A stretch of DNA of 61,095 bases. Origin: Candidatus Pacearchaeota archaeon (GTDB taxonomy: Archaea > Nanobdellota > Nanobdellia > Pacearchaeales > UBA284). The DNA is taken from contig JAWAPZ010000003.1 in assembly GCA_038894195.1 (NCBI GenBank), positions 1 through 61,095 of the forward strand, written 5' to 3'. The notes beneath the pieces are model-generated. The model saw only the letters and a list, made by a program, of their open reading frames with translations. It did no database searches and was not told the origin of the DNA. Shown piece after piece: positions 52,919 through 57,671 of this stretch; the stretch's first letter is position 1, and each line of letters begins with the position of its first letter. A program made the position numbers and the translations under genes.

Positions 52919-53443
52919 TCATACTTTTAAAACTTTCCCTGATATCTCTTCTTTAGCTTCTTCTACCAACCCTTCCCTGTTTTTCTTGCCTCTAATTTTT
53001 TCAAATGCCCTGTTAAAAAAATCTCTGACGCTAAATTTTTTATTTTCTTCTAAGTTAAAATTAAATTCACTTTCTTCAGCTTCTACAGCTTTCTTGATTT
53101 CTTCTATATCTCTAGCTTGCTCTTTCTCAAGGTCTTCTAAAAATTCTTGTTCATGCATGATCTTTTGTTTTTCTTCAGCTTCTTTTGCCCTTCTCTCTCT
53201 ATATCTTTCATAAAGATCATTAAGTGAAAAGTTCTCTTTTGGCTTAACTTTCATTTTTTCAAGAATAATCTTAGCTGGTCCTTCTTCTTTTTTAACCAAA
53301 ATAAAAGAACCATTTAGTTGAGCACACCTTCTACATAAACGAATCGGTTTACCATCAGTTATAGTATCAAAAAGCTCCTCGACAATGCCACACTCCTCAC
53401 ACCCTTTACTAAAATTGATTTCTTTCTTCAAGTCAGCCATCAT
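52919..53443 (-). CDS. Zn-ribbon protein (aMBF1-like N-terminus)
   Basis: CEECG..LCRRCA; no clear HTH. Confidence 0.5.
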   Translation of the reverse strand: MMADLKKEINFSKGCEECGIVEELFDTITDGKPIRLCRRCAQLNGSFILVKKEEGPAKIILEKMKVKPKENFSLNDLYERYRERRAKEAEEKQKIMHEQEFLEDLEKEQARDIEEIKKAVEAEESEFNFNLEENKKFSVRDFFNRAFEKIRGKKNREGLVEEAKEEISGKVLKV

Positions 53444-53464: not shown

Positions 53465-53938
53465 TTAAACTTTACGAAATTTTTCCTGAAATTCTTTTTT
53501 AGTAAGCAAAGTCCTTCTATGTTTCTTCTCTAGTTCTTTAGGGATTTTCTTTTTATGTTTTTTCAAATAATTATAAATTGCTTCTGCAAGAGCATCTTCT
53601 GCAAGCAAAGAACAATGATATTTAACGGGTGGTAATCCTCCAAGAAACTTAACAATACTCTGATTTGTTATTCTCAAAGCTTTTTCAAACGTTTTTCCTT
53701 TTGCAAGTTCAGTCACAACACTTGATGTGGCTATGGCAGCAGCACACCCCAAGGTTTTGAACTTTATATCTTTGATATAATATTCATTTTTCTTGTTCTT
53801 GTCAACCTTAATAAAAATTCGCATGATATCTCCACAAATTATATTCCCAACTTTACCGACACCGTCAGCATTTTTGATTTCACCAACATTTTTTGGATGC
53901 AAAAAATATTTCATTACTTTTTTGTTATATTCTGCCAT
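53465..53938 (-). CDS. iscU: Fe-S scaffold IscU/NifU
   Basis: HPKNVG, CGD, GCAAAIA, KYHCS. Confidence 0.95.
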   Translation of the reverse strand: MAEYNKKVMKYFLHPKNVGEIKNADGVGKVGNIICGDIMRIFIKVDKNKKNEYYIKDIKFKTLGCAAAIATSSVVTELAKGKTFEKALRITNQSIVKFLGGLPPVKYHCSLLAEDALAEAIYNYLKKHKKKIPKELEKKHRRTLLTKKEFQEKFRKV

Positions 53939-54031
53939 TTTCTCTTTCCCCTATAATTTCTTTAAATAATTCAATAAATTCTTCGCATCCAGATTTGCAC
54001 TCAAACATTTTTTCAATTATAGACATTTTAT

Positions 54032-54268
54032 TTATTTTTTCTTCAATTTTTCGTTTAACTCTTTAACAAGCTTATCAGGATCAAGACCATGAGCTAAAGC
54101 ACCTTGTTCGATTGTTTCATATCTACCAACAGAACAGCCAACACAATGCATGTTATATTTTAAAAAAACATCGACTGTTTCAGGATACTGGCTAAGAACT
54201 TGATAAAAATACATCTTTTTTGTTATTCTAATTTTTTTTTCTTTCTTTTTTGATTTTTTTGTTTTCAT
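54032..54268 (-). CDS. DUF1858 protein
   Basis: YPETVDVF..MHCVGC..ETIEQGALAHG. Confidence 0.85.
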   Translation of the reverse strand: MKTKKSKKKEKKIRITKKMYFYQVLSQYPETVDVFLKYNMHCVGCSVGRYETIEQGALAHGLDPDKLVKELNEKLKKK

Positions 54269-54269
54269 C

Positions 54270-55100
54270 TTAGATATTTTTCAGATTTTTGACTAAGATC
54301 TTAAATCTTTCATTATTTTCGTCAATAAACCAAGGACAATCGCTAAATCCTCTGTGAAAAGAAAAGATGTAAATAGATGGCATTGAAATAATTAATTCGT
54401 TTAGATCTGGTTCAGCATAACTAAAATATAATTCGTGAGGGAATAATTTTTTGTATCTTCTTCTTGCAAAGATTCTAAAATATATATATCTTTTCGCTAC
54501 TTCTTCAGAAGTCATAATATTCTTCTTAACAAAAAGTGAATGCTTTTCTGCTTGGGATTTAAATCTTTCAAAAAAAGGGCTTTTAATTATCTTTTCTGCT
54601 CTTGTTTTTACCTCATTCAAAATATCCACATCTTTTGTTTTTTTTGCTATTTCATCCAAGGTCAAATTTTCTTTTGGATCCAATTTGAATAGGTTACCCC
54701 ATATTTCTTGGTTCACTCTAATTAGCTTAAAATCCTCGCCCAAAGAATCAAAAATTGGCTTAAGAGTATTATAGTACAAATCTATTTTTTCTCTGGGATA
54801 TCCTTCCAAATAAGAAGCATTGATATCTGTAAATAATATCTTAATAATCACCCTTACATTTATTTTTTTAAGCTCATCAACAATTCTTTTTTTTAAAAAT
54901 AGTAAAGCTGCTTCATCAACTTTATCTGCAACTCCTTCTTTGGTCGTCTTAACTCCCAGCCAATTTGTGACAAGAATTAACGGTTGATCGTTATCTAAAA
55001 AATATTTAATACACTCTTTTACACCATGTGGATTTGGTGGCCAAGATTTTCTGATACTAGACCGAGTTAAGATTTGATATACCTCTTTAACATTTGCCAT
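54270..55100 (-). CDS. Unknown Rossmann-like enzyme (weak PvcA/DIT1- or CDPS-like resemblance)
   Basis: LILVTNWLGVK..ADKVDEAALLFL..KILFTD; C-terminal PWF; tightly coupled to the radical SAM gene. Confidence 0.45.
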   Translation of the reverse strand: MANVKEVYQILTRSSIRKSWPPNPHGVKECIKYFLDNDQPLILVTNWLGVKTTKEGVADKVDEAALLFLKKRIVDELKKINVRVIIKILFTDINASYLEGYPREKIDLYYNTLKPIFDSLGEDFKLIRVNQEIWGNLFKLDPKENLTLDEIAKKTKDVDILNEVKTRAEKIIKSPFFERFKSQAEKHSLFVKKNIMTSEEVAKRYIYFRIFARRRYKKLFPHELYFSYAEPDLNELIISMPSIYIFSFHRGFSDCPWFIDENNERFKILVKNLKNI

Positions 55101-55101
55101 T

Positions 55102-56058
55102 TTATTTTTTAACACTTGGCCATGCAATCGGCCAAGCACATCCAGGACATTTAATTCTATCTTTATCTTTTATCCAATCATCCTTAAAATTTTTATATAT
55201 CTTTCTGTTAAGGTTCAAAATATTGTATTTTTCGGCAACAGACCCTTTGACATCATTGCATATCCACAATGAACCATCACTGTCTATCCTTAACCTAGCT
55301 AACACAGAACAATGCCATCCAATGGGGTTACAATTTATTTTAGCTAGATTTTCCAAATACTGTGTTGGATTTACAATTCTATAACCTCTTTTCTTTAATT
55401 TAACCAACTTGTTCATTACTTTCCCAACTAAAAATCTATCATCTTCTTTTATTTTAAACTCGTCGGCAACATCTTCTGCTCGAAACTCCCATTTAAAATG
55501 TTTGCCCCAATGTAATGGAATAATATTTATCCAAATCCCAAGACTAGATAATCTCTCAACAATAAAAGGTATTTCTTTGATATTCCTTTTGCTAATAATT
55601 ATTTCTGCTTGAACATAAGGAACTCCAGCTGTCTTCATTTTCATAAGCATTTTAAAACATTTACCTGATTTGATTGTTAACCAATCCTTTTTTGTTTGAA
55701 AATTAAAAGTATTCACGTCGGCACAGTATCCTCTTATTCCTGCTTTTAGTAAGCTAACAAATCTTTCTTTAGTAAAAGTAGAGTTAGATTGTATTGAATA
55801 AAATAACTTTGTCTTTTTATTAAGGAAATTGATCAAATCCTCAAGATAGTCAAGAGTTGTTGGCTCTCCCCCAAGGATTTGTATTGATTTAACTCCTATC
55901 TTTTCAAGATTTTTAATTCCTTTTTTCCATTGTTCAAAAGTAATCTCATTTGGAAGTTTTTTACTCCTCCTAATTTTACAGAAGGGACATTTTAAATTAC
56001 ATTTCCTTGTTATCACAATCTTAGCATCGTAACCTTTGTTCACAACAATTGGTACCAT
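55102..56058 (-). CDS. Radical SAM protein with twitch/SPASM-like extension
   Basis: CNLKCPFC, GGEP, WHC..IDSDGSLWICND..CPGC. Confidence 0.9.
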   Translation of the reverse strand: MVPIVVNKGYDAKIVITRKCNLKCPFCKIRRSKKLPNEITFEQWKKGIKNLEKIGVKSIQILGGEPTTLDYLEDLINFLNKKTKLFYSIQSNSTFTKERFVSLLKAGIRGYCADVNTFNFQTKKDWLTIKSGKCFKMLMKMKTAGVPYVQAEIIISKRNIKEIPFIVERLSSLGIWINIIPLHWGKHFKWEFRAEDVADEFKIKEDDRFLVGKVMNKLVKLKKRGYRIVNPTQYLENLAKINCNPIGWHCSVLARLRIDSDGSLWICNDVKGSVAEKYNILNLNRKIYKNFKDDWIKDKDRIKCPGCAWPIAWPSVKK

Positions 56059-56059
56059 T

Positions 56060-57208
56060 CTAAAAAGGACTAATTCTTCTTAAAGAATTTATAATTTTTG
56101 GCAAGACTTCGAGCAACTTGTCAACATCTTGTTCTGTATTATCTTTTCCTAGAGTAATTCTTAAACTTCCGTGGGCTTCTTCTGGTTTTAATCCTAGAGC
56201 CGTAAGCACATGACTTGGTTCTAAGGATTTTGATGAGCATGCAGAGCCAGTTGAAACCGCGAACCCTTTTTCGCTTAGCCTTAGCAATAAAGCTTCTCCC
56301 TCTATGCCATGAAAAGAAACATTCACATTATTTGCAAGTCTTTTTTCTTGTGAACCATTCAACCTTGATCCTTGAATCTTTAAAATTTCTTTAATTATTT
56401 TATCTCTTAATTTTTTCTGCCTCTCTTGTTCTTTTTTTCCTAATTTTTGCATTAGTTCAACTGCTTTTGCAAAACCAACAATTCCAGGAACATTTTCAGT
56501 TCCACTTCTCAAGCCTTGTTCATGGCCACCACCATGTTGTGTAGGCTCAATTTTAACATCTCTATTAACATAAAGTATTCCTACTCCTTTTGGACCATAA
56601 ATTTTATGCGCTGAAGCAGATAAAATATCTAGATTCATTCTTTTAATATTAATATCCAATTTACCAAAAGACTGAACAGCATCTGTGTGGAAGTATACAT
56701 CATACTTTTTACATATTTTACCTATCTCTTCTATTGGTTGTATTGTTCCAATTTCGTTGTTAGCGTGCATTATACTTACAAGCACGGTTTCTTTTGTTAT
56801 GGCTTTCTCAACATCAGCAGGGTTTATTATACCATCACTATTTACTGGTAAATAAGTAACTTTCCAGCCCTGTTTTTCAAGCCATCTACATGGTTCAAGA
56901 ACAGCAGGATGTTCTATCTTACTTGTTATAATGTGTTTGCCTTTCTGCTTATTAGCAAATGCTACCCCTTTTATCGCTAAATTATTTGATTCAGTTCCTC
57001 CAGAAGTAAAAACAATTTCAGCTGGCTTAGCATTAATAAACTTTGCTATATCATCTCTTGCTTTTTCTACAGCATTTCTTGCTTCCTGGCCATACACATG
57101 TAAACTTGAAGCATTACCAAACTTTTCTGAAAAATATGGCTTAATTGCTTCAAAAATTTCGTTAGCTAGTGGTGTGGTTGCGGCATGATCAAGATAGATA
57201 TGTTTCAT
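56060..57208 (-). CDS. iscS: Cysteine desulfurase IscS/NifS
   Basis: YLDHAATT, SGGTESNN, SAHKIYGPKG, GSACSS. Confidence 0.97.
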   Translation of the reverse strand: MKHIYLDHAATTPLANEIFEAIKPYFSEKFGNASSLHVYGQEARNAVEKARDDIAKFINAKPAEIVFTSGGTESNNLAIKGVAFANKQKGKHIITSKIEHPAVLEPCRWLEKQGWKVTYLPVNSDGIINPADVEKAITKETVLVSIMHANNEIGTIQPIEEIGKICKKYDVYFHTDAVQSFGKLDINIKRMNLDILSASAHKIYGPKGVGILYVNRDVKIEPTQHGGGHEQGLRSGTENVPGIVGFAKAVELMQKLGKKEQERQKKLRDKIIKEILKIQGSRLNGSQEKRLANNVNVSFHGIEGEALLLRLSEKGFAVSTGSACSSKSLEPSHVLTALGLKPEEAHGSLRITLGKDNTEQDVDKLLEVLPKIINSLRRISPF

Positions 57209-57218
57209 TTTCTCTTTT

Positions 57219-57593
57219 TTATCTTGTTTCCATCAGTGGTCTGGCTGAACATAAAGCAAGTATTCCTTTATTGTATTTTTTACAAATGCAGCACGCCAAA
57301 CCTTGTTGCTTGATAATATTTAGCAAATGCAAGATTTCTTGGATTACTTTTTTATTATCTTTAACAATTACTCCAGCAGCATTTTCAAATTCCTTTTTCA
57401 TTTTTAAAGGAAATTTTAATTCTATTGCTCTTTTCTTACTTAAATATTGAGAAACAGCAGATTCTGTTGTTCCAAGAATGTTTGCAACTTCCTTTTGTTT
57501 AAGTTTGTGTTTTTCTACAAGAACGCGCGCTAGCTCACGTCTTATAGCTGGAATTATGTACCATACTTCAATTTCCTGAGGCAAACTGTACAT
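57219..57593 (-). CDS. XRE-type HTH regulator with C-terminal Cys cluster
   Basis: PQEIEVWYIIPAIRRELA..QKEVANILGTTESAVSQY; CCIC. Confidence 0.8.
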   Translation of the reverse strand: MYSLPQEIEVWYIIPAIRRELARVLVEKHKLKQKEVANILGTTESAVSQYLSKKRAIELKFPLKMKKEFENAAGVIVKDNKKVIQEILHLLNIIKQQGLACCICKKYNKGILALCSARPLMETR

Positions 57594-57671
57594 AAATTAC
57601 TTAACTATTGTTAACTTTATAAATCTTTTGCTCATGAAAACTTTTAAAAACCCTAGCAACATGATAATCTT

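Follow-up and report, generated by a model that had tools for sequence, protein, structure and literature searches.

The stretch of DNA analysed here, hereafter the window, comprises 61,095 nucleotides of contig JAWAPZ010000003.1 (assembly GCA_038894195.1) from a Candidatus Pacearchaeota archaeon, a tiny symbiont of the DPANN group. Within its iron–sulfur (Fe-S) cluster assembly (ISC) operon, two adjacent genes on the minus strand were followed up, one for a 318-aa radical S-adenosylmethionine (SAM) enzyme (55,102–56,058) and one for a 276-aa protein (54,270–55,100). As judged from sequence comparison, the two genes appear to form a self-contained, horizontally mobile and rare two-gene biosynthetic cassette, which was inserted in one lineage between iscS and the gene of a DUF1858 protein. 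The predicted product is a small reactive metabolite that is probably made without oxygen. The pair may be an oxygen-independent counterpart of the isonitrile synthase and oxidase pathway, and a probability of about 40% was assigned to this reading. Both open reading frames (ORFs) are real, conserved genes rather than chance ORFs. The start of the 276-aa protein was placed at the ATG at 55,100, as in its homologues, in place of the GTG at 55,139 that the ORF finder had used.

The 276-aa protein was not recognised by family searches. Neither the protein nor its 10-member alignment gave a meaningful match in Pfam, NCBIfam or PDB sequences. The family PF05141 (DIT1_PvcA) matched none of the 10 close members at E <= 10, and its gathering score (26.4 bits) was reached neither by the protein nor by these members. 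The close family is very rare, with 10 clusters among 5.8 billion proteins, and a pattern scan of 185,579 species genomes using the close-family alignment, A1, yielded no confirmed locus. The structure was predicted with AlphaFold from the 10-sequence alignment, and the model (predicted local distance difference test score, pLDDT, 86.5; predicted template modelling score, pTM, 0.85) was compared with the PDB using Foldseek. Chains of PIsnA (9DHM, 9DH4) or PvcA (3E59) occupied ranks 1–7 and 9, with E-values of 1.6e-6 to 9e-5, template modelling (TM) scores of 0.56–0.62 and approximately 280 aligned columns. The 276-aa protein is thus predicted by the model to share the three-dimensional fold of PvcA and PIsnA. 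The original prediction, made from the letters alone, had loosely likened this gene product to PvcA/DIT1 enzymes, and the guess was borne out both by the Foldseek ranking and by the family profile described below, which also found PIsnA first in the PDB.

A sequence link to the same superfamily was obtained through more distant relatives. The A1 profile retrieved 192 representatives at E <= 1e-3 and joined a wider family with E-values down to 1e-34. A profile of this wider family, A4 (82 single-domain sequences), matched PIsnA first in the PDB (E 3.6e-5, 26.6 bits), followed by tyrosyl-tRNA synthetase (TyrRS; E 4e-3, over the F-x-D-x-H-A motif) and PvcA (E 0.099). Moreover, PF05141 touched 5 of 60 distant members, all below its cut-off (best E 8.7e-5; P0071, 22.6 bits), and P0071 used as a query against the PDB returned nothing useful. 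At E <= 1e-5, the A4 profile matched at least 574 proteins, mostly named 'hypothetical', several of which had been named 'L-tyrosine isonitrile synthase' by the Joint Genome Institute. The wider family (P0043–P0298 in our collection) is largely missed by PF05141. Some of its members carry AMP-binding domains or unassigned N-terminal domains of 150–190 aa, and the proteobacterial members stand alone near PxpB/PxpC, EamA and GGDEF-EAL genes; gene contexts in proteobacteria were uninformative. No fusion of a radical SAM domain to an IsnA-like domain was present among the 298 collected proteins.

When the wider family was aligned with PIsnA, W-G-G-x-K corresponded to P-A-F-P-T-K, A-D-x-x-D to A-P-D-M-A-E and F-x-D-x-H-A to C-S-D-G-H-V, and the invariant Tyr109 was aligned to a tyrosine of PIsnA. 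TyrRS has F-A-D-L-H-A-Y at the F-x-D-x-H-A place. In the 276-aa protein, K51, D59, D92 and Y109 are conserved and aligned with PIsnA. The motif layout that had been read from the single sequence also recurred in its relatives, with W47-L-G-V-K51, D59, D62, F90-x-D92 and C-P-W-F at 255–258 conserved among homologues. In the tree, a long branch (support 100/98) separated the clade of the window protein from all other family members. Based on the model and the profile comparisons, the 276-aa protein is predicted to be a deeply divergent member of the IsnA/PvcA/Dit1 superfamily.

The same searches bear on another possibility, namely, that the protein acts like a tRNA synthetase or a cyclodipeptide synthase, using an aminoacyl-tRNA or an activated amino acid to form a peptide or amide bond that the radical SAM enzyme would then modify. 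TyrRS and one cyclodipeptide synthase appeared in the Foldseek list, the TyrRS match of the A4 profile lies over F-x-D-x-H-A, and fusions to AMP-binding domains occur in a few of the distant family members; the window protein also shares the Rossmann-type fold of the class Ic aminoacyl-tRNA synthetase catalytic domain and of cyclodipeptide synthases. However, the TM scores to TyrRS (0.41–0.48) and to the cyclodipeptide synthase (0.41) were clearly below those to PIsnA and PvcA. Neither the HIGH nor the KMSKS motif was found in the family alignment, and the window protein lacks an anticodon-binding domain. Moreover, IsnA and PvcA themselves have this ancestry. Chemistry of this type was therefore considered highly improbable.

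The upstream gene of the pair encodes a radical SAM enzyme by Pfam (PF04055, 68 bits; cut-off 29.5), and its CxxxCxxC motif (C20/C24/C27) was invariant in 30 homologues. The auxiliary cysteines of the twitch type that had been pointed out in the first reading of the sequence were invariant in 30 homologues as well (C250, C267, C304 and C307, spaced C-x16-C-x36-C-x2-C). This spacing presumably resembles the one in BtrN, a radical SAM dehydrogenase whose auxiliary cluster is fully ligated. In the AlphaFold2 model (pLDDT 87.1), strands 255–258 and 263–265 and helix 285–297 form a beta-hairpin and helix at the auxiliary cysteines, and the SPASM model PF13186 gave no match to the enzyme. The enzyme is thus predicted to be of the twitch type, with a single C-terminal set of auxiliary-cluster cysteines and without the full seven-Cys SPASM motif. 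All NCBIfam matches were far below their cut-offs, the best being MoaA_archaeal (69 bits versus 325), and an assignment as MoaA, the GTP 3',8-cyclase, was rejected (TIGR02668, 69.2 bits versus 325; TIGR02666, 57 bits versus 284). Foldseek neighbours of the model were viperin (E 2e-10), BlsE (best TM, 0.69), MoaA, SuiB, SkfB and AbmM. Compared with the twitch enzymes BtrN, MoaA and SkfB and with viperin and BlsE, the window enzyme has in common the CxxxCxxC motif and a C-terminal hairpin and helix with four conserved cysteines, and viperin, BlsE, MoaA and SkfB are among its structural neighbours. It differs in scoring under every curated family cut-off, and BtrN lay outside the top 50 Foldseek matches.

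The original prediction had treated the two enzymes as partners in one pathway, and the pairing does recur in other lineages, so the possibility that the two never co-occur elsewhere falls away. A radical SAM gene lies directly upstream of an IsnA-like gene in six lineages (the window, L001–3, L004/5, L032, L033 and L058), the last of these being the single additional intact pair found in a metagenome scan. Two further lineages (P0002/P0014 and P0010/P0016) probably have the same pairing, as suggested by matching contig sizes. The identities of the IsnA-like and radical SAM proteins to those of the window were 61–62% and 65–70%, respectively, in four lineages, and 51% and 52% in L004. These parallel identities indicate that the two genes were inherited together. 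In L001 (4630–4650), a frameshift within a run of ten A's splits the radical SAM gene, identically in the L001, L002 and L003 assemblies; the gene may be a pseudogene, or the frameshift may stem from misassembly or mark a slippage site. In L058, which is related to L001–3, the gene is intact.

In two bacterial lineages (L008 and L009–11), a flavoprotein similar to Frd, NadB and TfrA lies directly upstream of the IsnA-like gene. It scored 475 bits with TfrA and 343 bits with NadB, each below the cut-off. The contigs of both lineages carry SLT, LysM, YceG, RuvX and FtsA genes and are probably from Patescibacteria. In L008 (1122–5405), the genes for alanyl-tRNA synthetase, the flavoprotein and the IsnA-like protein overlap end to end in an operon-like manner. 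P0003, a bacterial, flavoprotein-partnered protein that is 63% identical to the window protein, was placed as its sister within the radical SAM-paired clade (support 92/81 and 99/98). Since it is nested in this clade, the partner was swapped recently. The swap is explained most simply if the radical SAM enzyme and the flavoprotein do the same job, a two-electron oxidation.

In the described systems, IsnA enzymes act on Trp or Tyr, whose amino nitrogen becomes bonded to a carbon of ribulose-5-phosphate, and the resulting isocyano acid is passed to an Fe(II)/2-oxoglutarate enzyme (IsnB, AmbI3) and is then decarboxylated and desaturated (PMC11350588). Fungal isonitrile synthases are fused to TauD or paired with a cytochrome P450, Dit2 (PMC10153163), and the Dit1 product is probably N-formyl-tyrosine (PMC7345447). 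In two of these papers, each IsnA-type isonitrile synthase described teams with an O2-dependent oxidase (PMC11350588, PMC10153163). By analogy, the 276-aa enzyme would, like IsnA, condense an amino acid with a ketose phosphate, forming a bond between the amino group of the former and the carbonyl carbon of the latter. This would yield an isonitrile group or, upon hydration, an N-formyl group. Tyr and Trp are improbable as the amine, since this protein has Asn where the D-x-H motif has its pocket His, and aspartate is a candidate because the bacterial partner is of the NadB/Frd type. The twitch radical SAM enzyme would act as the oxygen-independent partner for two-electron oxidative tailoring, either desaturation or oxidative decarboxylation, taking the place of the O2-dependent IsnB/PvcB dioxygenases, the TauD fusions or the P450 Dit2. 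In the bacterial copies, the Frd/NadB-type flavoprotein would displace it as the oxidant. In the fuller scenario, a minimal isonitrile-type pathway that needs no oxygen would be passed between DPANN archaea and ultra-small bacteria. A new branch of the isonitrile-synthase superfamily would make a reactive N-C group on a non-aromatic amino acid, possibly aspartate. This scenario, with a twitch radical SAM enzyme or an interchangeable Frd/NadB-type flavoprotein as the oxidant, was considered somewhat unlikely as a whole.

The closest known counterparts are IsnA/PvcA with IsnB/PvcB/AmbI3, which share with the window pair the compact arrangement of two genes, a condensing enzyme and a redox enzyme. 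IsnA/PvcA proteins are also the best structural match, have a profile-level sequence link and align at the Lys, Asp and Tyr positions. Unlike them, the window protein has no PF05141 match and carries D-x-N in place of D-x-H; it is teamed with a twitch radical SAM enzyme, or with a flavoprotein in the bacterial copies, rather than with an O2-dependent dioxygenase, and the hosts of the pair are ultra-small, probably anaerobic archaea and bacteria. Yeast Dit1/Dit2, which belong to N-formyl-tyrosine and dityrosine formation, and the fungal isocyanide synthase clusters (monodomain, TauD and non-ribosomal peptide synthetase-like fusions) belong to the same superfamily and share the minimal two-gene plan of synthase and oxidase (PMC10153163). 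They differ in their P450 or TauD oxidase, in being eukaryotic and aerobic, and in having synthases that are recognised by PF05141.

Several results weigh against an isonitrile-type pathway. When the genome of the window was searched with PF05141 at E <= 10, the 276-aa protein was not matched, and the direct hhalign comparison of A1 with a PIsnA fragment was co-linear and not significant (E 0.13). Because neither gave a significant match, the fold and the intermediate sequences are what connects the protein to isonitrile synthases. All 10 close members have Asn94 in place of the His in the D-x-H motif, a motif that IsnA, the wider family and TyrRS share, and Glu99 in place of the conserved Asn that comes after it; therefore, the chemistry may differ. 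The equivalent His70 of Methanocaldococcus jannaschii TyrRS lines the pocket of the tyrosine side chain. The change to Asn94 in this pocket would thus point to a different amine substrate rather than to a dead enzyme. Dit1 of yeast, in the same superfamily, reportedly makes no isonitrile, which shows that enzymes with this fold can act without releasing the free isonitrile (PMC7345447). The archaeal copy L006 has no redox partner, abuts NadE and has NadA 4 kb away. On the side of the radical SAM enzyme, the nearest folds (viperin, BlsE, MoaA and AbmM) act on nucleotide or sugar substrates, and homologues at 30–45% identity adjoin UPRTase-like genes or sugar-phosphate-type clusters, not IsnA-like genes.

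These last points lead to an alternative in which a pentose phosphate or nucleotide is the substrate of the radical SAM enzyme and undergoes rearrangement, dehydration or oxidation. The IsnA-fold enzyme would either couple an amine to the resulting keto-sugar phosphate or supply the radical SAM enzyme with its substrate, and the product would be a modified sugar or nucleoside. The structural neighbours viperin, BlsE, MoaA and AbmM speak for it, although viperin and MoaA always come up in searches with the generic core fold of radical SAM enzymes. A UPRTase-like gene is the partner of homologues with 40–73% mutual identity in a Methanosarcinales metagenome-assembled genome (MAG) and a bacterial MAG, and homologues at approximately 30% identity sit among PHP, GT1 glycosyltransferase, HAD sugar-phosphatase, APH kinase and Nudix genes; however, all of the more distant homologues are without an IsnA-like neighbour. 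IsnA itself uses ribulose-5-phosphate (PMC11350588), and RpiA lies near the L006 copy. The replacement partner in bacteria argues in the other direction, being of the Frd/NadB family, whose members use C4-dicarboxylates, aspartate or acrylate-type acids as substrates and are not known to use sugars. On balance, a sugar or nucleoside pathway was rated as unlikely.

In the course of this comparison, the next-closest clade of radical SAM homologues (approximately 41% identical) was seen to form an overlapping pair with a phosphoribosyltransferase of the uracil phosphoribosyltransferase (UPRTase) family (L026/L048, 6001–7679; L049, 4971–6637). The pair occurs in one Methanosarcinales MAG and one bacterial MAG with 73% identity between them, and it is another undescribed radical SAM cassette common to both domains. 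No IsnA-like ORF was found near the second-tier radical SAM homologues, and the 251- and 255-aa proteins beside distant homologues were examined as candidates and proved not to be IsnA-like.

The bacterial flavoprotein and the surroundings of L006 raise a further alternative, in which the pair would serve aspartate- and NAD-linked primary metabolism: aspartate and a ketose phosphate would be condensed, and the oxidant would complete a non-canonical pathway whose end product is iminoaspartate, quinolinate or some related pyridine precursor. A NadB/TfrA-like protein lies directly upstream in the two bacterial lineages, albeit under both the NadB and the TfrA cut-offs. Next to the L006 copy lies a true NadE (267.7 bits against a cut-off of 255), NadA is close by, and a NadE gene also adjoins a radical SAM homologue in a Spirochaetales MAG; however, L006 already has the canonical NadA. 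Moreover, a tblastn search of the genome of the window (approximately 70% complete) found no NadA, NadB or NadE, and NadC was not found either, its sole match (13.7 bits) being a MinD-like ATPase. Consequently, a quinolinate or nicotinate product would be without a downstream path in that approximately 70% complete genome, which weakens this alternative, and it was considered improbable.

The position of the pair within the ISC operon had been taken in the original prediction as a pathway wired to its own cluster supply. As a functional design, this was not supported: no other copy of the pair lies in an Fe-S operon, and 60 genomes of the same family or order lack the pair and keep the operon. 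The HTH-iscS-DUF1858-iscU arrangement is kept across family and order, and a check on whether iscS and DUF1858 are contiguous in relatives showed that iscS is followed directly by DUF1858 in L018, L022, L024 and L025. Since the other copies lie elsewhere and the 60 relatives have the operon without the pair, its place here is regarded as a lineage-specific insertion. The GC content of the pair (0.29–0.31, versus a genome mean of 0.334, SD 0.03) carries no foreign compositional signature. In relatives, the gaps of the ISC operon hold a GNAT acetyltransferase (L015), a HAD hydrolase (L017, L022), Nudix proteins (L020, L021) and membrane proteins (L019–L025).

These data bear directly on the idea that the pair serves Fe-S cluster assembly as an accessory, for example, by modifying a scaffold or cofactor. 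All that speaks for it is where the pair lies in the operon, the 1-nt spacing and a probable shared transcript with iscS and iscU. Every other copy is found outside Fe-S operons, the same operon occurs without the pair in the 60 relatives, and unrelated cargo occupies the same junctions in relatives. By these comparative data, an accessory role appears close to refuted. Because it is inserted between iscS and DUF1858, the cassette is probably co-transcribed with the Fe-S machinery. This may help an enzyme with two clusters, and it is not a conserved design.

As a separate observation, the ISC operon of this archaeal order is a cargo site (L015–L025). Its cargo includes a 150-aa membrane protein and a membrane-anchored protein of approximately 210 aa with a G-Y-G-T-R-H-A-A-A motif, the latter presumably containing a diadenylate-cyclase domain.

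To our knowledge, IsnA-type synthases are without exception partnered with O2-dependent oxidases. If true, a pairing with a radical SAM enzyme, or interchangeably with a flavoprotein, in strictly reduced-genome, probably anaerobic symbionts would extend isonitrile chemistry to anoxic life and represent the first anaerobic route to isonitrile-type metabolites. It would also be a rare instance of specialised chemistry, metal-binding or host-directed, in organisms thought to be nearly devoid of it. For the biology of DPANN archaea and candidate phyla radiation bacteria, the cassette offers a candidate small molecule for host interaction or metal handling. The 63% identity between archaeal and bacterial copies documents gene exchange between the two groups. 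Moreover, the searches exposed a large, almost unannotated branch of the superfamily that genome mining based on PF05141 misses, and an oxygen-independent pair would provide a concrete two-gene target for heterologous expression.

The host operon is located at 53,465–57,593 of the window, and the gene order first proposed for it, from a Cys-containing helix-turn-helix (HTH) gene through iscS, the radical SAM gene, the then unassigned gene and DUF1858 to iscU, was recovered in full, with all six ORFs on the minus strand. The 1-nt gaps reported from iscS through DUF1858 were also seen, the junctions being TAGaATG, TAAaATG and TAAgATG. The first gene (57,219–57,593) encodes a 124-aa HTH regulator with a weak HTH_3 match at residues 27–59 and a C-terminal Cys cluster (CCIC...C). 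It is followed by a NifS/IscS cysteine desulfurase (56,060–57,208; PF00266, 332 bits; TIGR03402, 553.8 bits, cut-off 530.75), the inserted pair, a DUF1858 or redox-disulfide domain protein of the type associated with hybrid-cluster proteins (54,032–54,268; PF08984, 74 bits; TIGR03980, 88.4 bits) and the Fe-S scaffold IscU/NifU-N (53,465–53,938; PF01592, 150 bits). The HTH, NifS/IscS, DUF1858 and IscU genes belong to the conserved host operon and not to the inserted pair. The desulfurase scores above the TIGR03402 cut-off and is accompanied by IscU, both being kept in relatives, as is characteristic of an ISC-type assembly operon. IscU was found in 36 of 41 related genomes. A TATA-box-like element, TTTATAAA, at 57,616–57,623 (minus strand), 23 nt upstream of the HTH start codon, was picked out by eye as the putative single promoter of the operon.

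The HTH protein fits no named family and has four C-terminal cysteines. Its gene lies upstream of iscS in at least 15 relatives, and homologues were found on the same contig and strand as iscU, 2.6–5.2 kb away, in 15 relatives. The protein is a candidate for the regulator that controls the ISC operon by sensing Fe-S. Two further ORFs were observed near iscU, both on the minus strand. A 33-codon ORF (MSIIEKMFECKSGCEEF...) at 53,925–54,026, with a CxxxC pair, fills the 93 nt that separate DUF1858 from iscU and shares 14 nt with the start of iscU; the relative L015 has no such gap. After iscU, a gene at 52,919–53,443 encodes a 174-aa zinc-ribbon and coiled-coil protein, which is found at the same position in L015, L016 and L025.

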